Shown here piece by piece: positions 31,164-43,693 of a stretch of DNA of 43,693 nucleotides. Each line of letters opens with the position of its first letter. The first letter of the stretch is position 1. The stretch lies in IMG/VR virus record IMGVR_UViG_2698536506_000010. One strand, 5' to 3'. Position numbers and translations under genes: made by a program. Source of the stretch: a virus (lineage: Duplodnaviria; Heunggongvirae; Uroviricota; Caudoviricetes). The notes below the pieces were generated by a model. It did no database searches, was not told where the DNA came from, and was given only the letters and a program-made list of their open reading frames with translations.

Positions 31164-33467
31164 ATGTCTGAGAAAGCAGGCGAGATTTATTACGACATCG
31201 AGGCCGATGTATCTGGCTTGCTCAAGGCCCAGGGAAAGGCTAATAAGTCGCTCGACTCCATCGGCAACTCGGCGACCAATGCAGCCAAAAAGATGGATGA
31301 GTTGCAGACGAACATCAACCGCGTCGCCGGGGCAATTGCCGCCTCACTCGTTGTTGACTGGGGTAAGGCGTTTCTCGTAGCTGCTGACAACATGAGCCAG
31401 CTCAACGCGCGTATAGAGAGGCTCACTGGTAGCGCAGCGACAGCCTCGCAGACTATGCAGAATCTGATGCGCATCAGTTCGGCAACGGGTGGTTCGCTAC
31501 AGGATACAGCAAAGCTGTGGGAGACTCTCAGCACGGCGTTGCGCGATACCGGAGCGACCAACGGCCAGATAATCCAGCTTACCGAAACACTTCAGAAAAT
31601 AGGTCGCATTGGCGGATCCTCGACAGAAGAAATGGCGAATGCTCTTCGTCAGTTCGGCCAGTCAATTTCATCAGGTACTGTCCGGGCGGAGGAGTTCAAC
31701 TCCATCCTTGAGCAAATGCCGGAACTGGCGCGCCAGATTGCCGCCGGGATGGGTGTAAGCATCGGAGAGCTTCGTCAGCTCATGCTGGACGGGAAACTGA
31801 CGGCAGAAGATGCTCTCAACGCCATTCAGAAGCAAACCGGCTCAGTGAATGCAGAGTTCGAGAAACTCCCGCGCACGCTTTCACAGGCTAATACCGCGCT
31901 GACAAACTCATTCCTGTCGATGATTGACTCTGTTAACCAGGCGACTGGAGCAAGCACAGGGCTGGTTGCGGTTATCGATTCAATGACTGCTGCACTCGAC
32001 CGGCTGGTGGGTAAAGCGGCGTCGGCAGATGCTCAGATATCGGATCTGAACAGCACCGCTGAAATGTTTACCCGCCGCGCGCGCACCTGGTCATGGCTTG
32101 GGCTTGATGGTTGGGAGGCGCAAAACAAAGCGCTGGCCGGGCTGAGTAATAAAGCCGCCATGCTGGTTGGCGACCTGGCCGCTGTTTCCAAAGCATCGCA
32201 GACCGCGGCTAACACAAAGCCGATCGAGATTAAAACGACCGCCTCAGCTACTGGCGGCAAAGCGAAAGGCGGAAAGTCTGCTGCACAGAAAGAAGCTGAG
32301 CAATACGCTAAAGCGCAGGACTCGATAAACGAAAAATTGGAAGCCCTGAGACAAGAATCTATTCTTGCAGCAGGTTCAACCAGCGAATTAACCCGTGAGC
32401 AGCAACTACTAAGGGCAGAGATGTCTCTTGGTGCCGATGCAACGGATGAACAGCGACAGAAGGCAAGAGAGTACAAAGCACAGGCTTTGGATACTGCTGA
32501 AGCATTGAAAAAGCAAGCCCAGGCAGAAAGAGATAAGCAAGCTGCGCAGTCCAACTTCAGCAGCCTACAAAGCCAAGCTTCTCCTGTGGCTAGCGTTGAA
32601 AGCCAGTTTCAGCAGCAGATTGAGCAACTCAACCAGTACGCTGCGCTCTATCCTCAGAAAATAGCTGAGGTAGAGGCTGTAAGGGCTAGCATTGAGGAGC
32701 AATATCGCCAAAAAAGACTCGATGCTCAGTGGCAAGAATTAAGTCAAATGAATATCGGCTTCGGCATGCTAACGAGTGCCGTGGATGCCTTTGGCGGAAA
32801 CGCATCAAACGTCATAACTGGACTGATCACAGGAACGATGTCAGCTCAGGATGCTATGCGCTCACTCGGTAACACGATGCTGAATAGCGTGGTAAATGCG
32901 CTAGTCCAGGTTGGGGTTGAGGCTCTCAAAAACTTCATTATCGGTCAGACATTGGGCGCAGCAGCTACTGCTGCTGGAGCATCTCAGGCTGCAATCTTGG
33001 CTACAGCTTGGGCTCCTGCCGCCGCCATGGCTAGCCTCGCTTCATTTGGGGCCAACTCAGTTCCTGCCATGACAGGAATTGCTTCAACGGTAGGCCTGGC
33101 ACAGGGCCTTGCTTTAACCGGTATGCGTTACAATGGCGGCCCGGTGAATGCAGGAGGTCTTTATCAGGTCGGTGAGCGAGGGAAACCTGAGATTTACCAG
33201 GCCAGTACCGGTAAGCAGTACATGATACCGGGCGACAACGGCAGGGTGATCAGCAATAAGGACATGACTTCGGGTGGAGGGGGCGGTGCTCCGATTCTCA
33301 ACATCTACAACTACTCATCCGCGTCTGTAGATGCTCAGGCTACACAGAACGGTGATGGTTCATGGACGCTTGAAGCTTTTATAGCTGACATGAATAACGG
33401 CGGCCCGGCAAGCAACGCCATTACCAGCAACATGAACGTTAAACGCACGCCAAGAGGGCAGGGCTGA
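31164..33467 (+). CDS. Tail tape measure protein (767 aa)
   Basis: Long Ala/Gln-rich alpha-helical protein at the expected tail position; lambda gpH-like N-terminal region (GELRQLMLDGKLTAEDALNAIQKQTG). Confidence 0.85.
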   Translation: MSEKAGEIYYDIEADVSGLLKAQGKANKSLDSIGNSATNAAKKMDELQTNINRVAGAIAASLVVDWGKAFLVAADNMSQLNARIERLTGSAATASQTMQNLMRISSATGGSLQDTAKLWETLSTALRDTGATNGQIIQLTETLQKIGRIGGSSTEEMANALRQFGQSISSGTVRAEEFNSILEQMPELARQIAAGMGVSIGELRQLMLDGKLTAEDALNAIQKQTGSVNAEFEKLPRTLSQANTALTNSFLSMIDSVNQATGASTGLVAVIDSMTAALDRLVGKAASADAQISDLNSTAEMFTRRARTWSWLGLDGWEAQNKALAGLSNKAAMLVGDLAAVSKASQTAANTKPIEIKTTASATGGKAKGGKSAAQKEAEQYAKAQDSINEKLEALRQESILAAGSTSELTREQQLLRAEMSLGADATDEQRQKAREYKAQALDTAEALKKQAQAERDKQAAQSNFSSLQSQASPVASVESQFQQQIEQLNQYAALYPQKIAEVEAVRASIEEQYRQKRLDAQWQELSQMNIGFGMLTSAVDAFGGNASNVITGLITGTMSAQDAMRSLGNTMLNSVVNALVQVGVEALKNFIIGQTLGAAATAAGASQAAILATAWAPAAAMASLASFGANSVPAMTGIASTVGLAQGLALTGMRYNGGPVNAGGLYQVGERGKPEIYQASTGKQYMIPGDNGRVISNKDMTSGGGGGAPILNIYNYSSASVDAQATQNGDGSWTLEAFIADMNNGGPASNAITSNMNVKRTPRGQG

Positions 33468-33964
33468 TGCCAATTATCGACTATCCCGACTGGCTGCCGC
33501 TGGCGCAGAAGGCCAGCAAAAACATGACTCTCGATACCGGGTTCCAGACCGATCAGCCAGCGGTCGGCCCGGCTATCTTCGAGAATCAAACCGACGACCT
33601 GAAAGTGACCTGGTCGCTGACGTGGATCTTCACTCTGGCTGAGGAGCGAGCATTCCAGCAGTGGCTGCGCAGCCCAAACTATCTCAACCGGGGCCTGAAC
33701 TGGTTCAGGATGAATATCAATCTGGGCGGCAGTGGTCTCCAGTTGCAAGAGCTTCACTTCACGCAGATGCCGGTGCAAACCAGTATCGACGGCGGGGTGG
33801 TGACATGGACAGGAACCGTTATTGCCAACCATCTGTACAACGCTGACGACGAGTTTGACGACGTAATTGTTGAGCTGCCGCCGCCGTGGCCTTCAGTGCT
33901 TGATATCGTGGTGACTGGCTATCCGGACGGACGCGATCCAGAAAGTCTTCCGAGGGTTCCCTGA
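33467..33964 (+). CDS. Minor tail protein (lambda gpM position) (165 aa)
   Basis: Start overlaps the tape-measure stop. Confidence 0.45.
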   Translation: MPIIDYPDWLPLAQKASKNMTLDTGFQTDQPAVGPAIFENQTDDLKVTWSLTWIFTLAEERAFQQWLRSPNYLNRGLNWFRMNINLGGSGLQLQELHFTQMPVQTSIDGGVVTWTGTVIANHLYNADDEFDDVIVELPPPWPSVLDIVVTGYPDGRDPESLPRVP

Positions 33965-34447: not shown

Positions 34448-34813
34448 ATGATCGGCGTGCCGTGGTCTAACCGCGCCTGCTCATTCGAAAAGACTGATTG
34501 CTGGGGGCTGGTTGTGCTGTATTACCGACATGTGCTCGACATTGAGCTGCACCAGACGCCGGGTTACGAAGCCGGGGAGGATTTCTTCACCTGCTATCAG
34601 GGAGACGTCGTTTTCTGGCGCAAGGTCGATAAACCGGTCGACGGGGGGATATTTGTCGGGTACCGCGGCGCGCAACCGGCGCACGTTGGCCTGGTACTGA
34701 ACCGGCAGGCGCTGCACTCGCGTGGAGAGAACGGAAGCGTGCGCATGGACTCGTTGCTGGTCATTCAGCGGGCATTCACCAAAGTGGAGTTTTTCGAATA
34801 TGGCGCTGGTTGA
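34448..34813 (+). CDS. NlpC/P60-family tail protein (lambda gpK-like) (121 aa)
   Basis: Candidate catalytic Cys (TDCWGLV) and His (PAHVGLV) in NlpC/P60-like spacing; gpK position. Confidence 0.5.
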   Translation: MIGVPWSNRACSFEKTDCWGLVVLYYRHVLDIELHQTPGYEAGEDFFTCYQGDVVFWRKVDKPVDGGIFVGYRGAQPAHVGLVLNRQALHSRGENGSVRMDSLLVIQRAFTKVEFFEYGAG

Positions 34814-37277
34814 GATATCGAATTTTCCAGGAACGCCTAAGCTGCGTTGCAGGGTGCCAAACGGCACCCTTTTTTATGACTGGCTGGCGGCCAATGACGC
34901 CACTTTCCACCGCGATCTGCTGATCGTCCGCAACGGCGTAAAGCTGGGCGACGATGATGAGCTGGCGTTTGAGCTGAGCGAGCTGGACCACATCCAGATA
35001 TTCGACCAGCCAAAGGGTATTGTCGATGACATCCTGAGCCCGATCTTTAAAGTGGTTGGTCAGGTATTTTCTTTCCTGGCGCCGAAGCCAGCTATTGCAA
35101 ACAACGGCGGTAATACCGTCGACTCGCCCAACAATAGCCTGACCGGTCAGACAAACACCGCGCGCGTCTACAAAGCCAAGCCGGACATCTACGGGCAGAT
35201 TCGTTCGTTCCCGGATCTGATCCAGGAATCAGTATTCGAATCCGTACACCAGACTTCCACAGACGGCGGCCTGAAGTACGTCACTGAATGGATGTGTATT
35301 GGGATCGGCAAATACGATTACGAGTCTGTGCGCTACTCAGAATCAAGCCTGGGCTCTCTGGCTGGTGCCGAATTCCAGTTCTTCCAGCCAGGAGAAGTTA
35401 TCCCGCAGATCGTCGAGGGATACGGGTTCGATGACGTTGACGGCCAGGAGGTTCCCGGGCAGAACGAAGCCAGCGACTTCCCGATCGAAACAGCAACGGC
35501 AAACACGGTGGTCAGCGGAACGTATTCCGGCGGCCAGATAGCGATGAAAATCGTGAAACAAGCCGAGTTCGATTATTTCATGGGGCTGGTTCTGCCGCAC
35601 GCTGTGACTTTCACCATCAACGTGACGTACAGCACGGCCTCAGGCAGCGTCACCACCGACGCGACATTCTCAGGCACGCTGATTTCAGCGGTTGAAACAA
35701 ACGACGGTGCAGTGGTTAACCCGGTGCGCTGGTACACGTTTACGATGAACCAGCTCGAGGGACCACAGGACATCCCGGCGAATGCCACTATCAACACCAC
35801 GAAATTCATCCTCAACGATAACGAGGCGCTGGTGGTTGGGCCGTTCTTTTCCCCGGTCGAGTCAACGCAGCTGTGGCTGCATACCCAGTCCAGCCTCGGT
35901 GGTAAGAAGGAGACAAACTGGAAGGTTGTCATCTGGAAAATCGACGACGACTACAACCAGGTGCCGGGAACGCAGCAGACGTTTACGTACCGGCAGACGA
36001 CGCCGCACCAGTCGACGAGCGAGGTGTTTTATCGCACTGACAAGATCACTCCGACCGGCGGGTTCGGGAAATACGCGGTCAGCTTCCAGCGCACGGATAA
36101 CTCCGGTGACGCGTCACTGCTGAAGGTAGAAGAGATCCACAGCATCAACATCAGGACAAACGTCGTTCACCCGACCGACACGCTTGTGCGAGTAAAAGTC
36201 CGGGCGACAGAGAACGCTCTTGGCAGCCGCGAGCGCAAATATAACGCACTGGTGACGCGCCATACCATTACGTACGACCTGGACACGCAGACGGTGGATT
36301 ACACCCTGAGGCCGTCGCGCTCGTTCGCTGATGCAGTGGCTCACACCTGGCTCATCATGGGTGAGCAGCCGGTAAGCAGCATTGACCTGTACGGGCTGTA
36401 CTCGATCGCCGAAAGCCTGCCTGATGAGCGACTGGGCTACTTCGACTACACGTTTGACGACGAGAACGACTCACTCGGCGACCGCGTGCAGGCGATCTGC
36501 AATGCGGCGTCGGTGGTGGCGTACTGGGATGACGGCGTGCTGACGTTTACTCGAGACCAGAAGGTTGATTACCCGGCGGCCGTATTCAACCGGGCCAACA
36601 TGAAGACGGACGAGTACAAAATGACGTACGAAGCTACTCTTCCAGGCGGTTATGACGGCGTGCAGGTGTCCTACGTTCACCCGACCACGAACAACAAGAC
36701 GTACATCAACTACCGCGTGCTGAACGGCGCTATCGTTGAACAGGAAGCGGAGAACCCGAACAAGCTGGAGATCGTCGGCTTCCGTAATGAGTATCAGGCC
36801 AGGGAGCGAGCTCTGCGCGAAACCAAGCGCCTGATCTACTCGCGCGTGAAGATGAACGCGAAAGTGTTTGAGGACGGCATTATCCAGGTCGGTAGCGTCA
36901 TCCAGATGCCAGACATCTATGACAGCAACCAGCAGGGTGGTTACGTCACCGGCCGCTCCGGGAATGACTTCGATACCAGCGAGCCGATCACGTTTACCGG
37001 CTCGATGTATGTGCTGGTTACCGACAGCCTGGGTAACCCAACTCTGCGTTATCCGGCCACCGCCCGTAGCGACACGAAGTACGGATTCACCGCGGCTATC
37101 CCTAACATTCAGCTCAACATATGGAACGGTGACACTGTGCAGCTACCGTCGCGCTATCTCATCGCGACAGTGGAAGAGCTGGACAGTCAGCTATGGACGG
37201 TCAACAGCATCAAACCGAACACAGACAATACGGTTTCCCTGACGATCGCAGAGTACAGCGACGCCATCTACCAATAA
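34800..37277 (+). CDS. Tail tip / host specificity protein (J-like) with possible gpI-like N-terminal domain (825 aa)
   Basis: Large protein after the K-like gene; N-terminal about 90 aa (LFYDWLAANDATFHRDLLIVRNGVKLGDDDELAFELSELDHIQIF) resembles tail assembly protein I. Confidence 0.55.
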   Translation: MALVEISNFPGTPKLRCRVPNGTLFYDWLAANDATFHRDLLIVRNGVKLGDDDELAFELSELDHIQIFDQPKGIVDDILSPIFKVVGQVFSFLAPKPAIANNGGNTVDSPNNSLTGQTNTARVYKAKPDIYGQIRSFPDLIQESVFESVHQTSTDGGLKYVTEWMCIGIGKYDYESVRYSESSLGSLAGAEFQFFQPGEVIPQIVEGYGFDDVDGQEVPGQNEASDFPIETATANTVVSGTYSGGQIAMKIVKQAEFDYFMGLVLPHAVTFTINVTYSTASGSVTTDATFSGTLISAVETNDGAVVNPVRWYTFTMNQLEGPQDIPANATINTTKFILNDNEALVVGPFFSPVESTQLWLHTQSSLGGKKETNWKVVIWKIDDDYNQVPGTQQTFTYRQTTPHQSTSEVFYRTDKITPTGGFGKYAVSFQRTDNSGDASLLKVEEIHSINIRTNVVHPTDTLVRVKVRATENALGSRERKYNALVTRHTITYDLDTQTVDYTLRPSRSFADAVAHTWLIMGEQPVSSIDLYGLYSIAESLPDERLGYFDYTFDDENDSLGDRVQAICNAASVVAYWDDGVLTFTRDQKVDYPAAVFNRANMKTDEYKMTYEATLPGGYDGVQVSYVHPTTNNKTYINYRVLNGAIVEQEAENPNKLEIVGFRNEYQARERALRETKRLIYSRVKMNAKVFEDGIIQVGSVIQMPDIYDSNQQGGYVTGRSGNDFDTSEPITFTGSMYVLVTDSLGNPTLRYPATARSDTKYGFTAAIPNIQLNIWNGDTVQLPSRYLIATVEELDSQLWTVNSIKPNTDNTVSLTIAEYSDAIYQ

Positions 37278-37299
37278 GAACCGTCCCCGACCAACCGAA

Positions 37300-37323
37300 C
37301 CCGGCCACCGCGCCGGGTTTTTT
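37300..37323 (+). terminator. Rho-independent terminator between J-like and tailspike genes
   Basis: CCCGGC-caccgc-GCCGGG hairpin followed by TTTTTT. Confidence 0.55.
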
Positions 37324-37334
37324 ATGGAACTAAT

Positions 37335-39311
37335 ATGGCTACGACACCTACCAACCTGTCAGTACCGAGCGAGTCCCCCCGCGATCTGAAATTTAACGCA
37401 GGGAAAATTGATGAATTTGTGACATCGCTGGCACTTCAGTACATTGATCGCTTTGGCAATGCTCATTACACCATCGAAGGCCTGCGCTGGATGGCGCAGC
37501 AGGCTATTTCCCAGTATGGGTGGGTTCCGATCGGAACATTCCAGGATGGTGCAACATTAACTCTGCCTAACCAAATCCTGAAAGACACCACCGACGGTGA
37601 ATACTATCGCTGGGACGGTTCATTTTTGCCATCAGGGAAGGTTGTGCCAAATGGTTCTACGCCAGGATCAACAGGTGGGGTTGGTGTAGGTGCATGGATA
37701 AGTGTTGGTGATTCGGCATTGCGCTCAATGCTTGCTTCTGAGCAAGGAGTTTCCATGGTTGGCGGCATTGCCATGGAGCTCGACTCTCAGGCCGATTTGG
37801 CAACAAACACAACTGTTCAGGGACGGCTGGTGGCAGTAAAGAACACTGTCGGTAGTTACAATAAATACTCCATAATTCCAAACTCTGGTGTGCTTGGCGA
37901 TGGCGATGTAATCATCGACAGGGTGGATGGATTGCAGGCAGAGCTTCAGATTGAAGGGGTTCTGGATGTACGGGCTTTTGCAAAGTCTGGTAGGACAGAC
38001 CAACAAATAATTCAGGCGGAATTAGATTACGCTGGATCTAAATCAGGTCATTGGGTTGTTGGCTTGACGGCCAAAGATAAAACCGGAACACCATGGAGAT
38101 TCAGCACACTTAACGTACCTGACAGCACTGTTTTTCAGGGGCATGGTGGCGCTCTTAAGCTAAATGACAATGTCTGTGTCGATGCTTCAGTTAGCTATTA
38201 CTTGCTGCATAACATAAACGGCAATGATGTATGGCTGGACGGGTTATATATCGATGGCAATATGAGCAATAACTCCTTGTTCACCGTTGCTGATCTTGTA
38301 ACCCTCATCGGAGAAGGGTCAAAAATCACCAATTGCACCCTTATGAATGCCCCCGACTCTGGTCTAATGTTCTCAGGTGTAAAGAATGGTCTAGCGTCTG
38401 CAAACACCATCGGCAATGGCAGAGATGTTGCTATCTATGCAAATGCAAGCGCAGACGGCAGCGCAAGGAACAATGTGTTATCTGACAATGTTCTGTACGG
38501 ATTCCCGGCAGGAGGAATAGGATTTAAACGTTATTTTGCTGATTGTGTAGCCAGCGGGAACGCAATTTATCTCTGTGGAAACGGCGTGACATTTGAGGAC
38601 TTTACTGTTGAGACCGAAGGTAAATTCCCCAAAAGGATTACGCTGTCTGGTACTTTTATGCGAGACATCGGCTTTCCACACCGCGCCACTGCTAACGTAG
38701 CAGAGCGAGGAATTAGCATTCAGCGTGCCTCTGATATCAGCATCACTGGTCTTCAGACAGTTAACGTTTCTGGCAATATATTATACATTGGAAATGGCAC
38801 AGATATCTGCGTTGATAACGCCATGCTTAGAGGTTATGTTGCAAGTCCACAAAGCAACGGAAATAACGGAGTGCTAGTCGTTAATGCCCAAGGAGGGCAC
38901 CTGAGTAATGTGAATGTTACCGCAGTGGCAAGCAGGGCAGGATATTTCCAGACCGTTAATGGCATGTCCGTTCGTGGCGGAAGATGGGTCAGTTCAGGGA
39001 CTCAGTCTGGCATCAGGGTAGATGCTACCGCTCAATTTTCAATATTTAATCCTGACTATATTTCTGGTGGATCTGGAGCTGACGAAGAGTGGTTTGAAGG
39101 AGCAACAGGGATATCGAACGGATACATCCGGGCTAATGCAACAGGCCCAGGCAGATACGGAATAAGAGAGCTTTCTGCTGGGCAGGGCACTAACCCAAAT
39201 ACAAGGCTTATCCCCAGATTTATTGGAGAGAAATGCGTTACCTTGTCAGATAGCGCAATCTGGATGGCAAAAGGTATGTCTAACTCTGATTGGGTTAAGT
39301 TATCTAACTGA
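37335..39311 (+). CDS. Tailspike / receptor-binding protein with beta-helix polysaccharide depolymerase-like domain (658 aa)
   Basis: Gly/Asn/Ser/Val-rich repeats (NAIYLCGNG, ITGLQTVNVSGNILYIGNG, NGNNGVLVVNAQGG) typical of right-handed beta-helix tailspikes; lower GC in the C-terminal two-thirds. Confidence 0.65.
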   Translation: MATTPTNLSVPSESPRDLKFNAGKIDEFVTSLALQYIDRFGNAHYTIEGLRWMAQQAISQYGWVPIGTFQDGATLTLPNQILKDTTDGEYYRWDGSFLPSGKVVPNGSTPGSTGGVGVGAWISVGDSALRSMLASEQGVSMVGGIAMELDSQADLATNTTVQGRLVAVKNTVGSYNKYSIIPNSGVLGDGDVIIDRVDGLQAELQIEGVLDVRAFAKSGRTDQQIIQAELDYAGSKSGHWVVGLTAKDKTGTPWRFSTLNVPDSTVFQGHGGALKLNDNVCVDASVSYYLLHNINGNDVWLDGLYIDGNMSNNSLFTVADLVTLIGEGSKITNCTLMNAPDSGLMFSGVKNGLASANTIGNGRDVAIYANASADGSARNNVLSDNVLYGFPAGGIGFKRYFADCVASGNAIYLCGNGVTFEDFTVETEGKFPKRITLSGTFMRDIGFPHRATANVAERGISIQRASDISITGLQTVNVSGNILYIGNGTDICVDNAMLRGYVASPQSNGNNGVLVVNAQGGHLSNVNVTAVASRAGYFQTVNGMSVRGGRWVSSGTQSGIRVDATAQFSIFNPDYISGGSGADEEWFEGATGISNGYIRANATGPGRYGIRELSAGQGTNPNTRLIPRFIGEKCVTLSDSAIWMAKGMSNSDWVKLSN

Positions 39312-40572
39312 AGTCAGGCCGCTGATGCGGCCTTTTCTCTGATAAAAACTGATTTATTAACTGCATAGTGTAAATAAGCATTAATACTTGAAAAACGAAA
39401 AGTACTCTCTTGCCTGAGCCATATGCTGAAGGCGAGAACATAATCATCATCACTGACGCACACGCCAGGAGAATGGTGAAACAACTGTAAAATGCATCAT
39501 TTTTACACCTGGCATTAAAAACTGCGAGGCATATCATTGAACTAATTGTCAGTAGAGTCACTGCGTGAGATATGTAAACAGTAGTTCCAGCCCAATTACT
39601 TCCTGATAGATAATTAGAGTTTACCATTCCTTTGAATATATTCGCCCCAAGGAGAAAAGATAAGAACATTATTAATTTTACGGCTACAATCGCAGCCGAA
39701 ATTGATGGCAGGACTTTAAAATCTTTTCTTTTCACATAGAGTAACAACAAAGTAAGCATAGCGATATTGATTAGTACGTTGCCAGAAGATGATACGTGAC
39801 TGCTTAAGACATCCACACCTATTGATAGTTTTTGAAAGATGCCATAGCTAACGTAATCTGGAAGCCAGTTTTTTGACTCACTAAAATATCTTAACTTATT
39901 ACCGGGAGCAGAAAAAAGAATAATGGCGCAAGCAATAGTTGTAACGAACATTGCGGCTATGATTGGAGTTATCCTTTTGAGATAGATAGCTCTGCATGCT
40001 AGAAATATCAAGAAGCAGATAGATATCTGTTCGTTGAACCCAAAGTACATAGCAGGTAAAACAGAGAGTGACTTAAGTATAATATTTAATGATTTCTCGT
40101 TAAGTACTGCATAAACAGACAGTAGGCAAAGAGTTGCTGGCATTAGATAGTTATATGACCCTGCGATCCACCATGATGCATCCGCATTAACTTCAGGTTC
40201 TATTAAGAAAAACATAAATAAAGAAACTGTGAAAGGAATCATCGCTCCTTGCTTTTCTCGAAGAGTTATCTTACTTATAATAAAAGATATCAAAATAACA
40301 CATGCTGGTATGAAAGTTTTCCAAAAGTATTCATAACGTATTGTATAGACCATGAGAGCATCTATAGTTAATCTCCCACTCCATTTTATATATCTGTCAT
40401 ATATAACATCATATACATTAGAGTTTAAAAGCAAGCGTGAGAAATTTAAATCATCTCCTGAGTGACGCAAGGATAAACCAGAAAAAAGAAATGCAATAAT
40501 AGCGATAATAAGCATGGCGGCAGTGACTTTTATGGCCACTATCATTTTATTTGCATTGGTAATGGATTTCAT
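39304..40572 (-). CDS. Polytopic membrane protein, putative serotype-specific component of the O-antigen modification operon (422 aa)
   Basis: Many predicted transmembrane segments, very AT-rich, last gene of the gtrA-gtrB operon; overlaps the upstream ORF by 26 nt in another frame. Confidence 0.5.
   Translation of the reverse strand: MKSITNANKMIVAIKVTAAMLIIAIIAFLFSGLSLRHSGDDLNFSRLLLNSNVYDVIYDRYIKWSGRLTIDALMVYTIRYEYFWKTFIPACVILISFIISKITLREKQGAMIPFTVSLFMFFLIEPEVNADASWWIAGSYNYLMPATLCLLSVYAVLNEKSLNIILKSLSVLPAMYFGFNEQISICFLIFLACRAIYLKRITPIIAAMFVTTIACAIILFSAPGNKLRYFSESKNWLPDYVSYGIFQKLSIGVDVLSSHVSSSGNVLINIAMLTLLLLYVKRKDFKVLPSISAAIVAVKLIMFLSFLLGANIFKGMVNSNYLSGSNWAGTTVYISHAVTLLTISSMICLAVFNARCKNDAFYSCFTILLACASVMMIMFSPSAYGSGKRVLFVFQVLMLIYTMQLINQFLSEKRPHQRPDFS
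39316..39340 (+). terminator. Rho-independent terminator after the tailspike gene
   Basis: AGGCCGC-tgat-GCGGCCT hairpin followed by TTTCTCT. Confidence 0.5.
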
Positions 40573-41011
40573 AATTATGGAGTCCGTCGTTAATCAATAT
40601 AGCAATATTGCCAGTGAATTTTTTAACCTTTTTGTTTCTTACTTGAGAGTTAAACCCAGAGCGATCATAAAGCAATGGTTTTCCAAAAGCTCGACTTACA
40701 TCACTTCTTCTGGTCATTGACTTGGGTATGCGCAACCATTTATCTCCGCCTATGCCAGCATAGATATTAACACTATAAAGTGTTTGCAAATTGTAGTTTT
40801 TTACTGCTGCCCAACCATTAACTACAAGTCTGCCGTCCTCAACCCGGCATCTATCTATATGATATATAATTCCTGAACTTGTTTTAGCATTGTCAAATTT
40901 AAATGTCGAAACGTCTGCTTTGTTAATATAAAAATAAAAGCCAGCAGGCAACATAATAGATGTTACAAACAATCCGACAAGTAATGTTTTTACAGGTAGT
41001 GAGACCTTCAT
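40547..41011 (-). CDS. Membrane-anchored protein (154 aa), possible N-terminal part or partner of the serotype-specific component
   Basis: N-terminal transmembrane helix then soluble domain; ATG overlaps the gtrB stop. Confidence 0.4.
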
Positions 41012-41925
41012 CCTTTCCTCTTCAAAATATATCTAGGACGGCTCTTTACTTCGGTGTAAATTCTTCCGATGTACTCACCAAGCACCCCGATACCAATCAA
41101 TTGGACTCCACCAAGGAAAAGGATAGAAACAAGAAGTGACGGGTAGCCCCGCACTGCGTTACCAAAAGCAAGGGTATCAACTATCATCCATGAGCCATAG
41201 AGGAGCGCCACGCCTGCAACCAGAAGGCCGATGTAAGTCCACATGCGAAGCGGGAAAGTAGAGAAACTCGTGATACCCTCAAGTGCCAGGTTCCACAACT
41301 TCCAGCCGTTAAATTTCGTACTTCCTGCGACGCGTTCTGCGCGGGCATATTCAACGACATCTGTACGGCCGCCAACCCAGCTCAATACGCCCTTCATGAA
41401 CAGGTTGCGCTCTGGCATGAGCTTAATGTTTTCCACCACCTCGCGGGACATAAGGCGGAAGTCACCAACGTTTTCTTCAATCTTCGGGTTGCTGATTTTG
41501 TTGTGCAGCTTATAGAACCATTCAGCGGTCTTGCGCTTCAGTCTGCCATCTGTAGAGCGATCAGAGCGTTTAGCGAGAACCATATCAGCACCGGCCTGCC
41601 ATTTCTCGATAAGGTGAGGAATGACTTCGATAGGGTCCTGCAAGTCTACGTCAATCGGGATAATTGCTTCACCGGTCGCGTGGTCAAGGCCGGCGAACAG
41701 GGCTGGTTCTTTCCCAAAGTTACGAGTAAATGACAATGGAACAACAAGCGTATCGGCAACAGCAAGCGCGTTAATAATTGATTCTGTCGCGTCTTTGCTG
41801 CCGTCATTGATGAATACTATCTCGACTTCATGCTGCTGAAGGCCTTCAAATTCCCGAACCGTTTTATAAAAAATCGGTATCGCGTCTTCTTCGTTGAAGA
41901 CGGGAACGACCAGAGAAATTTTCAT
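41008..41925 (-). CDS. gtrB: GtrB-like bactoprenol glucosyltransferase (GT2 family)
   Basis: GT2 hallmarks ([25 protein letters not shown]), C-terminal transmembrane helices, length about 305 aa; coupled to gtrA. Confidence 0.85.
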
Positions 41926-42284
41926 TTCGCATCCCTAAAGACAATAAACTTAGAATAGAAAAAGCCACATACAAGACTAATGGCGGAGAACGCCACCAGT
42001 GTGACGATTGGCGGTAAGCCACACCTGTCAGCAGCCCAACCTACAGCAGCACTCAGCGTTCCCATAAACCCAACGTAAAGCATGTAACGCAGCGTGGAAG
42101 TGGATGCTTTAAAAGTGAAGCGTGCGTTAGCGTAGAAACTAAAGCTGACGGCTACCACGAAACCTGCAAAGTTAGCCAATGCCTGACTTGTGGATAGGCC
42201 ATACACGCAAACACCAAACACGACCCAGTGAATGAGTGTGTTCAGTACGCCAATCGATGTGTACTTAGCAAAAAGTTTTAACAT
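41922..42284 (-). CDS. gtrA: GtrA-like flippase for bactoprenol-linked glucose
   Basis: About 120 aa, four predicted transmembrane helices, begins [20 protein letters not shown] as in GtrA-family proteins; first gene of the operon. Confidence 0.8.
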
Positions 42285-42360
42285 TAGAAAAATCAGTCAA
42301 TTCTGAGAAGGCAGAAGTTTAGCACCAACAAACAACTTGATCGACTATCAGAATAAGATG

Positions 42361-42380
42361 TACTGTATATGTGTACAGTA
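42361..42380. promoter_or_regulatory. LexA (SOS) box
   Basis: TACTGTATATGTGTACAGTA matches the CTGT-N8-ACAG consensus closely; about 20 nt upstream of the ATG at 42400. Confidence 0.7.
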
Positions 42381-42399
42381 TTTATTTTTGGGTGACTAT

Positions 42400-42639
42400 A
42401 TGCCGCGTCGTTCAGATATCGTGATCGCCTTCAGAGCCTCTATTGTGCATGAAAGGTCAGGCCGCAGGATTGTGAAAACTGCTGATTTTGTTCAGGAACT
42501 ACTAAAGGTCAACTGGGACCTAAGTATGGAAGAGGCGAATCAGTGGATAGATAGGTACACAACCTGCTTCAAAGACATCACTCCTGACCACGGAGAGAAC
42601 AAGACGTGGTTCATGTACAACCCGAATGGAGGGCTTTGA
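42400..42639 (+). CDS. Hypothetical SOS-regulated small protein (80 aa)
   Basis: First ORF after the LexA box; stop lies 1 nt before the UmuD'-like start; no family recognised. Confidence 0.4.
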   Translation: MPRRSDIVIAFRASIVHERSGRRIVKTADFVQELLKVNWDLSMEEANQWIDRYTTCFKDITPDHGENKTWFMYNPNGGL

Positions 42640-42640
42640 T

Positions 42641-43024
42641 ATGGCATTTGCATCCCCGGCTAAGGACTATGTGGAGCGCGGCATCTCTTTAGATGCTGAG
42701 TTGATTAGCCATCCATCGGCGACTTACTATGTCAGGTCTGATGTGGCTATTTTGCGTGCCGGCATTAAGCAAGGCGCGCTGCTTGTCGTGGACTCAGCAG
42801 TAAATCCATGTGATGGCTCGATCGTTCTCTGTTCCATCGATGGCCAGTTTGTCCTGAGGTATTACCGTATGTTCCCATGCTTGCATCTGGAGAACATGGA
42901 GACAGGTCGGAAGGAAAGGGCGCGCGGACTCGACGACGGAAGTGCAATCGATGTTTTCGGCGTGGTGACATACATCATTAACAATGCGCGCACCGGTGAA
43001 TTCGACGACAACCCGGTTATTTAA
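42641..43024 (+). CDS. UmuD'-like protein (HumD-like), pre-truncated and lacking the Ser/Lys catalytic dyad (127 aa)
   Basis: Aligns with E. coli UmuD from about residue 25 (SPAKDYVE..., HPSATYYV, LLVVDSA, DVFGVV); Ser60 and Lys97 positions are Ala/Val and Arg; GGAGGG RBS. Confidence 0.65.
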   Translation: MAFASPAKDYVERGISLDAELISHPSATYYVRSDVAILRAGIKQGALLVVDSAVNPCDGSIVLCSIDGQFVLRYYRMFPCLHLENMETGRKERARGLDDGSAIDVFGVVTYIINNARTGEFDDNPVI

Positions 43025-43693
43025 TCAGACGGGCTCGATTAACTCCGGGCCCTGATTCTTCACATTACCAACAGCGCGCGACACTGCGTGCCAGATAAAT
43101 GCATCTGCTGGCACCGAACCGTCGGAAACAATCTCCTCTGCTTCTTTCCCGCCCACATCCTGCCGCATCCATTCGCGTGCTGCTTCCGGTGACAGAACGA
43201 GTTGCCTGCGGTCGTGAATATCGACCAGTCCTTTATCGGCAGCCGCCGTGACTATCATAAAGCCTTCCGCTTCATCATCACGCTCAAACGGCGTACTGCC
43301 TATCGCCGCCATGAATATCGGCTTACCGTCCGCCCGATGAATGAAGTACGGCTGCTTCTTTTCGCCTTGCTTCTTCCATTCGAACCAGCCATCAGCAAAG
43401 ACTATCGCCCGGCCATGTTGCCAGAGCGGTTTGAACATCCGACTGGTGGCCGCAGTTTCCACACGTGCGTTTATCAGAGGCGGCTTATCCCACCATCCTG
43501 GAGCATAGCCCCAGTAAACCGGATCGAGGTGTAGTTGTTCATCTCGTTCGCTCAGCAGCAAAACTTTAGTGCCTGGCGCCACGTTGTACCGGCCAATGGG
43601 TTCCGGGTCGAACGGAATGTCACACTCGGCCTCTTCAGCGATTAACGCCAGATAATCTTCACGGGTCATTGATTGAGAGAAACGTCCGCACAT
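43025..43693 (-). CDS. yedK: YedK-like SOS-response-associated peptidase (SRAP / abasic-site processing protein)
   Basis: Canonical N-terminus MCGRF with Cys2, conserved blocks (RYNVAPGT, PLINARVET, FADGWFEWKK); ATG occupies the last three bases of the window. Confidence 0.8.
   Translation of the reverse strand: MCGRFSQSMTREDYLALIAEEAECDIPFDPEPIGRYNVAPGTKVLLLSERDEQLHLDPVYWGYAPGWWDKPPLINARVETAATSRMFKPLWQHGRAIVFADGWFEWKKQGEKKQPYFIHRADGKPIFMAAIGSTPFERDDEAEGFMIVTAAADKGLVDIHDRRQLVLSPEAAREWMRQDVGGKEAEEIVSDGSVPADAFIWHAVSRAVGNVKNQGPELIEPV

Follow-up and report, generated by a model that had tools for sequence, protein, structure and literature searches.

The window analysed here, a 43,693-nucleotide stretch of tailed-phage DNA (Caudoviricetes; IMG/VR record IMGVR_UViG_2698536506_000010), contains at positions 37335..39311 of the plus strand a gene that almost certainly encodes a tailspike with a beta-helix receptor-binding domain (RBD). 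Modular exchange of this domain is just as firmly indicated: judged from sequence comparison, the distal part of the protein is a mobile cassette found on siphophage, P22 head-binding, T7-like, Ackermannviridae and other anchors. A modular siphophage tailspike with a swappable beta-helix that targets O-antigen is the best overall explanation of our data, and we consider it very probable.

The gene is a single open reading frame of 658 amino acids (aa), its coordinates including the stop codon, with Pfam matches to Tail_spike_N and Beta_helix and with PHROG assignments to tail fiber and tail spike families. While the initial annotation had placed its end at 39340, the stop codon ends at 39311, so that the earlier end lies 29 nucleotides (nt) beyond it and takes in a terminator-like hairpin (39316-39333). 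The start codon was confirmed by an alignment with gp13 of phage Sf11 that runs from residue 1 to residue 1. An identical protein is on record from Escherichia coli (WP_061351796.1 / KXQ82766.1, contig LOPE01000015.1), and the names used by NCBI and UniRef are 'right-handed parallel beta-helix repeat-containing protein' or 'tail fiber/spike domain-containing protein'. Complete E. coli genomes match the chromosomal flank (yciB, yciC, ompW, trpA, trpB) at 99.8% identity. The host is therefore E. coli, and the prophage is integrated beside yciB-yciC-ompW-trpA in its chromosome. The genes 5' of the tailspike gene encode the tape measure, the distal tail protein (165 aa), a hub (156 aa), an NlpC/P60 protein and a protein of TipJ type (825 aa), and the virion module shares 83-91% DNA identity with Enterobacter phage CobraSix and other ES18-like temperate siphophages. 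The tailspike gene is thus the final tail gene in a temperate siphophage of the ES18/CobraSix/Sf11 type. Its 90%-identity protein cluster takes in both E. coli and Enterobacter.

We mapped the junction between the two parts of the protein from the alignment end points of the 120 best homologs. Ninety-six of these matched the N-terminus only, and in 82 of the 96 the alignment ended at aa 130-149; homologs of the distal domain alone began at aa 129-133. At the DNA level, homology to the podovirus-type prophages L002 and L006 (L002, L004 and L006 denote compared prophages, P-numbers homologous tailspikes) starts in both cases exactly at position 37759, within codon 142. Together, the homolog end points and the DNA breakpoint place the junction at aa 129-149 (37719..37781, plus strand; motif ...LRSMLASEQGVSMVGGIAMELD...) and not near aa 100, as initially annotated. 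The conserved N-terminal attachment module proposed there does exist, as its homology to Sf11 gp13 confirms, but it is about 130-149 aa long.

Comparison of the N- and C-terminal parts across relatives showed that the two exchange independently at aa 129-149, in agreement with the modular exchange that had been suspected: the same domain occurs on different N-termini, and the same anchor on unrelated distal domains. The RBD is found in other prophages on P22-type and T7-type N-termini (79-87% aa and 76-77% nt identity). P0002, encoded by the P22-like E. fergusonii prophage L002, shares 87% aa identity over aa 210-658 and is fused to a P22 Head_binding N-terminus, and L002 is 76% identical at the nt level from 37759 to the stop codon. 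P0003 of L006 carries the RBD on a different N-terminus with a weak Phage_T7_tail match, and a T7_gp14 homolog lies nearby. P0004, encoded by the Enterobacter hormaechei prophage L004, stands on the same siphophage backbone as the tailspike studied here. The Head_binding domain (PF09008) is carried by three relatives with the same distal domain family (P0002, P0010 and P0019); a Pfam search found no match to it in our tailspike. The anchor module, in turn, is joined elsewhere to GDSL esterases, Pectate_lyase_3, pectinesterase and other unrelated distal domains.

At least five beta-helix variants could be distinguished, with 79-98% identity within and 37-56% between them, and a variant-by-anchor matrix placed several of them on two to four different N-termini. 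Variant A comprises the protein studied here (siphophage anchor), P0002 (P22 anchor) and P0003 and P0005 (T7-like anchor). Variant B is formed by P0004 (siphophage anchor) and P0010 (P22 anchor), which are 94% identical, and variant C by P0006 (siphophage anchor), P0019 (P22 anchor), P0020 and P0022, and P0018. A 35%-identical copy of the RBD was found in Vibrio phages. The RBD family is small: in a set of 1.84 billion representatives it accounts for 116 clusters at 50% identity, of which 54 have E<=1e-30, and a fold search of a viral structure library added only uncharacterised relatives.

The course of DNA identity along the gene revealed further borders. Identity to L004 is 88-96% across the tail genes of the backbone, reaches 97-100% at 37275-37650 and drops from 78% to about 52% at 37950-38170 (aa ~205-280). 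Homology to L006 ends at 39127 (aa ~598), and the final ~55 aa are of a different lineage. DNA breakpoints were accordingly recorded at 37759, at about 38000-38170 and at 39127. Exchange points cluster at aa 129-149, with additional ones around aa 205-255 and around aa 600. When the gene was compared by megablast with 50,697 phage records, there was no match; with 5,426 complete E. coli genomes, the match was confined to the first 89-210 nt, there on GDSL esterase-type spikes. No recent donor of the RBD was identified in either set. The exchange with podovirus forms, at 76-77% nt identity, is old.

The right-handed beta-helix that had been proposed for the C-terminal domain was recovered by Pfam, by an AlphaFold2 (AF2) model and by a fold search. 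The Pfam Beta_helix match covers aa 309-422 (E=2e-6, 27.9 bits versus a cut-off of 25.9) and is present in 20 of the 24 relatives. A beta-helix is also present in the AF2 monomer model, which we computed on a 24-sequence alignment and which has a mean predicted local distance difference test score (pLDDT) of 77.9. Across most of aa 220-658 the pLDDT exceeds 90, and the strand pattern is regular and of the beta-helix type. The helix extends over aa ~211-600 (37965..39134, plus strand) and represents the putative polysaccharide-binding and -cleaving body. When the model was used as a Foldseek query, CBA120 TSP3 ranked first. The richness in Gly, Asn, Ser and Val that drew attention to this region is real (13.0%, 8.2%, 8.6% and 8.6% of aa 137-658, respectively), but the sequence repeats described with it are not: Tandem Repeats Finder returned 0 rows for the tailspike, whose 'repeats' are structural coils only.

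Between anchor and beta-helix, sliding identity and the family alignment of 24 relatives delimited a conserved neck, aa 137-210 (37743..37964, plus strand). Whatever the anchor, this neck is 80-97% identical across RBD variants, whereas their beta-helices are only 40-55% identical. The neck probably corresponds to a hinge and a trimeric neck; in Sf11, the tailspike hinge lies near residue 162 (PMC12724387). The low pLDDT of aa 126-206 would fit chains that intertwine in a trimeric neck, without being proof of it. The neck could double as a structural hinge and, as we infer, as a stretch of homology that permits recombination to either side of it. At the other end of the helix, aa 601-658 (39135..39308, plus strand) form a C-terminal cap or small beta domain with model strands at aa 611-655 (pLDDT 82-92). 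Here, the sliding identity of P0003 and P0005 falls from ~80% to 35%, and the cap has been swapped independently in some relatives.

By homology, aa 1-~136 are assigned to the virion anchor. Its first part, a tail-docking segment at aa 1-60 (37335..37514, plus strand), is homologous to the N-terminal helices of Sf11 gp13 (aa 4-59), and phmmer aligned aa 1-144 of our protein onto residues 1-144 of that protein (PDB 9occ_G, E=4.5e-44). In the AF2 monomer, aa 1-60 are of low confidence (pLDDT 27-53), and strands follow at aa 64-123 (pLDDT 66-84). The second part is a Tail_spike_N (PF18668) beta domain at aa 67-126 (37533..37712, plus strand; Pfam E=1.6e-16, 60.6 bits versus a cut-off of 25). This region has sequence matches in the PDB over aa 55-171 (4oj5, 5w6h, 5w6f and 6nw9), and the domain is common to CBA120 TSP1, TSP3 and TSP4 and many other tailspikes.

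Cryo-electron microscopy of Sf11 has shown that residues 4-59 of gp13 are helical and form a bundle with one adaptor helix of gp17, the distal tail protein, that six tailspike trimers are present per tail, and that tailspike residues Arg16 and Lys19 pair with Glu129, Glu136, Glu147 and Glu152 of gp17 (PMC12724387). Arg16 and Lys19 are conserved in our tailspike. The predicted docking partner of its N-terminus is the 165-aa distal tail protein (33467..33964, plus strand), of which aa 1-150 align with residues 1-150 of Sf11 gp17 (phmmer versus 9occ_C, E=3.5e-62) and which keeps the equivalents of the contacts Glu129 and Glu136.

The neighbourhood of the gene bears on the receptor. As initially annotated, a gtr operon is adjacent: gtrA, gtrB and a gtrC-like gene occupy the opposite strand directly downstream. 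In 4 of the 4 prophage contexts examined, the tailspike is followed either by a gtr cluster or by a gene for an O-acyltransferase, with gtrABC in L002 (after P0002) and L004 (after P0004) and Acyl_transf_3 in L006 (after P0003). Going by this gene context, O-antigen rather than another glycan is the likely receptor. A relative of the RBD occurs in the phage MK-13, and the Shigella host of that phage likewise points to an O-antigen target. An enzymatically active depolymerase is our prediction for the beta-helix, which we hold with moderate confidence. By analogy with Sf11, six trimers would hang from the distal-tail-protein ring; the beta-helix would bind, and probably cleave, the O-antigen polysaccharide of the host, and the tail tip would thereby reach the outer membrane. 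After lysogeny, the gtrA-gtrB-orf154-gtrC cluster would glucosylate the O-antigen, and lysogen and released virions would be protected.

A beta-helix that targets capsule (K antigen) or another exopolysaccharide, as a beta-elimination lyase on uronic-acid sugars, would suit the many invariant Arg and Tyr residues of the family (R378, R399, R443, R450, R458, Y288, Y368), which could accommodate acidic sugars. However, in every prophage context examined the gene after the tailspike is O-antigen-modifying (gtrABC or an acyltransferase) and not capsule-related, and the MK-13 relative belongs to a Shigella phage; Shigella boydii has no known capsule. The catalytic site of the alginate epimerase AlgE4 consists of Tyr/Asp/His/Asp on a beta-helix, and unlike this site the family has no invariant His: in the alignment of 24 relatives, no His position is fully or almost fully conserved. 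Taken together, we regard a capsule-directed lyase as unlikely.

Even less probable, in our view, is a binding-only domain that recognizes the receptor but has no catalytic function. It would agree with the observation that no catalytic motif can be assigned in the beta-helix, which has no sequence relative with a solved or characterised active site and no named family in NCBIfam. But the invariant residues of the beta-helix among the 24 relatives (D307, D320, D341, D364, R399, D403, R443, D444, E457 and R458) are Asp, Glu and Arg that stand as a ladder on successive coils, and homologs with no more than 39-55% identity retain this ladder (D320, D341, D364, D403, D444, E457), a pattern typical of active grooves. 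Moreover, those beta-helix tailspikes of O-antigen-specific phages that have been characterised are mostly enzymes, among them those of P22, Sf6, HK620 and CBA120. The Sf11 tailspike has been described as an enzyme as well (PMC12724387).

Several observations weigh against the tailspike model with an O-antigen-targeting beta-helix and Sf11-like docking. The structure is a monomer model only, with pLDDT below 50 at aa 1-33 and aa 126-206. Capsule lyases and an alginate epimerase are among the closest solved folds, and the best matches mix lyases, epimerase and hydrolases. A profile search of the family alignment against all PDB sequences matched the N-terminal module only, and since the beta-helix part is without a solved sequence relative, catalytic residues are not transferable. 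The gtrC-like gene beside the closest RBD relative (in L002) belongs to the same Pfam family as ours, but is only 24% identical. Finally, the distal tail protein is a truncated gp17 in which two of the four acidic contacts are gone (Glu147 is replaced by Ile, Glu152 is lost), and Pro138-140 interrupt its adaptor-helix segment. Because of the truncated partner, the lost acidic contacts and the Pro-Pro-Pro in the adaptor segment, docking geometry may differ from that of Sf11; docking is probably similar but not identical. There is also a slim chance of something more unusual, namely that the RBD family, its nearest solved fold being an alginate epimerase/lyase module and not a tailspike, might use a glycan-processing chemistry new for O-antigen tailspikes, and that the unusually conserved neck might serve specifically as a universal adaptor and linker for recombination, by which the RBD would move between sipho-, podo- and myovirus tails.

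The base composition of the gene had been read as a second sign of exchange. The gene is indeed AT-richer than the backbone, with a GC content of 0.475 versus a backbone mean of 0.548 (standard deviation 0.017, windows of 1566 nt); the upstream TipJ gene has 0.561. At third codon positions (GC3), the value is 0.436 versus 0.731 in TipJ. A compositional step also exists, but not inside the gene at the domain boundary, where the initial annotation had put it. By maximum likelihood, the change-point over 34800-39311 falls at 37318, in the gap between TipJ and the tailspike and upstream of the ATG (GC 0.565 to 0.472, log-likelihood ratio 19), while the best split within the gene (37837, GC 0.518 to 0.460) was not significant (permutation P=0.36; GC3 P=0.19). 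Sliding GC therefore marks the start of the gene and not the domain junction: the whole gene, anchor included, differs in composition from the backbone. RBD-coding DNA has a GC content of 0.42-0.47 in five different backbones whose upstream regions range from 0.48 to 0.565, and this steady low value fits a module with its own history. That only the C-terminal domain is a recent foreign acquisition, its splice point marked by an in-gene compositional junction, is very doubtful: GC is lower in aa 137-658 (0.467) than in aa 1-136 (0.507), with the same direction of difference in L004, L006 and MK-13, but the sole strong step precedes the ATG, the N-terminal module is itself low (GC3 0.47 versus 0.73 in TipJ), the exchange with podovirus-type relatives is old, and at the megablast level the RBD is in none of the complete E. 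coli genomes or deposited phages searched.

The O-antigen-modification cluster occupies 39304..42284 on the minus strand, convergent with the tailspike gene. It consists of gtrA (41922-42284, minus strand; Pfam GtrA_DPMS_TM, 9.8e-15), gtrB (41008-41925, minus strand; Glycos_transf_2, 2.6e-29), orf154 (40547-41011, minus strand; 154 aa) and a gtrC-like gene of the DUF6056 / GT_STM0557_N type (39304-40572, minus strand; Pfam DUF6056, 1.3e-13). These gene calls, orf154 included, match those in the source contig. The gtrC-like gene and orf154 (39304-41011) have a GC content of 0.30-0.39 (0.35-0.36 when computed per gene) versus a window mean of 0.524 and 0.47-0.49 in gtrA and gtrB, and this part looks like a separate foreign insertion. 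The product of orf154 has a hydrophobic N-terminus; the gene (GC 0.353) overlaps gtrB by 4 nt and the gtrC-like gene by 26 nt, and it has no match in Pfam, PHROG or NCBIfam. We rejected the possibility that it is a split-off piece of GtrC, finding no significant similarity to the 555-aa GtrC of L002; it may be a fourth component of the cluster. We also rejected RBD and gtrC as one moving cassette, as the gtrC-like gene of L002 shows no DNA similarity to ours. With the low identity of the two gtrC-like proteins, tailspike specificity and modification gene are not inherited as one unit.

Hairpins flank the tailspike gene on both sides. A terminator-like hairpin with a 9-bp stem (GC core 37300-37305 / 37312-37317) followed by U6 lies at 37297..37323 on the plus strand, within the late tail operon, in the 57 nt that separate the TipJ stop (37277) from the tailspike ATG. 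Its folding energy is -18.2 kcal/mol (z -3.66; 0 of 200 shuffles as good), it is kept in the E. hormaechei prophage L004, and it coincides with the change-point at 37318. A simple consensus pattern scan for terminators missed it. The second terminator-like hairpin, with a U-rich tail, follows the tailspike stop at 39316..39343 on the plus strand and was found by pattern scan and folding (hairpin 39316-39333, -15.7 kcal/mol, z -3.27). The final ~10 codons of the convergent gtrC-like gene contain this hairpin. The tailspike and gtrC-like genes overlap by 8 nt (39304-39311), and they are 28-44 nt apart in L002 and L004.

Two further observations concern the relation to L004. The patches 36150-36450 and 37425-37575 are 100% identical in DNA to this prophage, while the rest of the backbone is 88-96% identical, a pattern suggesting that prophages of E. 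coli and Enterobacter have recombined recently. The end of our prophage (42337-43693) carries a 100-aa open reading frame, an S24 peptidase gene (UmuD/LexA-like, 132 aa) and a SRAP (YedK-like) gene. At the equivalent place, L004 has a UmuC-like (IMS) gene and then SRAP; a UmuC partner was not seen in the window (1-43,693).

For annotation, these results identify the product of the gene as a prophage tailspike, define its domain boundaries and supply a structure-based docking model derived from Sf11. They describe one RBD family that moves between three tail morphotypes, with its junctions mapped, and help to predict host range from sequence. They are useful for host-range engineering, too, as both the conserved neck and the splice point at aa 129-149 offer natural sites for fusion.

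Among known systems, Sf11 shares with our prophage the gene order of tape measure, distal tail protein, hub 1, hub 2 (TipJ-like) and tailspike, and the homologous N-terminal 144 aa of gp13, Arg16 and Lys19 included. It differs in that homology ends at about aa 144 and the distal domains are unrelated in sequence, and in that its distal tail protein has 457 aa versus 165 aa here, where the C-terminal appendage is absent. The tailspikes of Ackermannviridae have the same architecture of Tail_spike_N (PF18668) and beta-helix, and gp201 of the Agtrevirus MK-13 (964 aa) and a ChubbyThor protein belong to the same RBD family (44% identity over aa 129-658). However, these phages belong to the lytic myoviruses, their several tailspikes form branched complexes and have N-termini of XD type, and the beta-helices of CBA120 have no detectable sequence similarity to ours. 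AlgE4 mannuronan C-5 epimerase, whose A-module (PDB 2PYG) resembles the beta-helix at the fold level only, with no significant sequence match, is a secreted bacterial enzyme and not a phage protein; an AlgE4-type site is argued against by the lack of a conserved His in the family.

The same design of a short virion-binding N-terminus and a beta-helix O-antigen domain is known from P22 gp9, Sf6 and HK620. The P22 family also resembles our prophage as temperate phages with O-antigen-modifying genes next to the tailspike, an arrangement that is classic for temperate enterobacterial phages, and P22-like prophages of E. fergusonii and E. coli carry the very domain described here (87% aa identity in P0002). 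In contrast, our tailspike is without Head_binding and sits on a siphophage tail. Beta-helix domains are known to move between phage families, as in Det7/P22, CUS-3/K1F and swaps among Kuttervirus tailspikes (PMC8432352). Thus, the protein is an uncharacterised member of a well-documented modular tailspike design, and no concept is changed by it.

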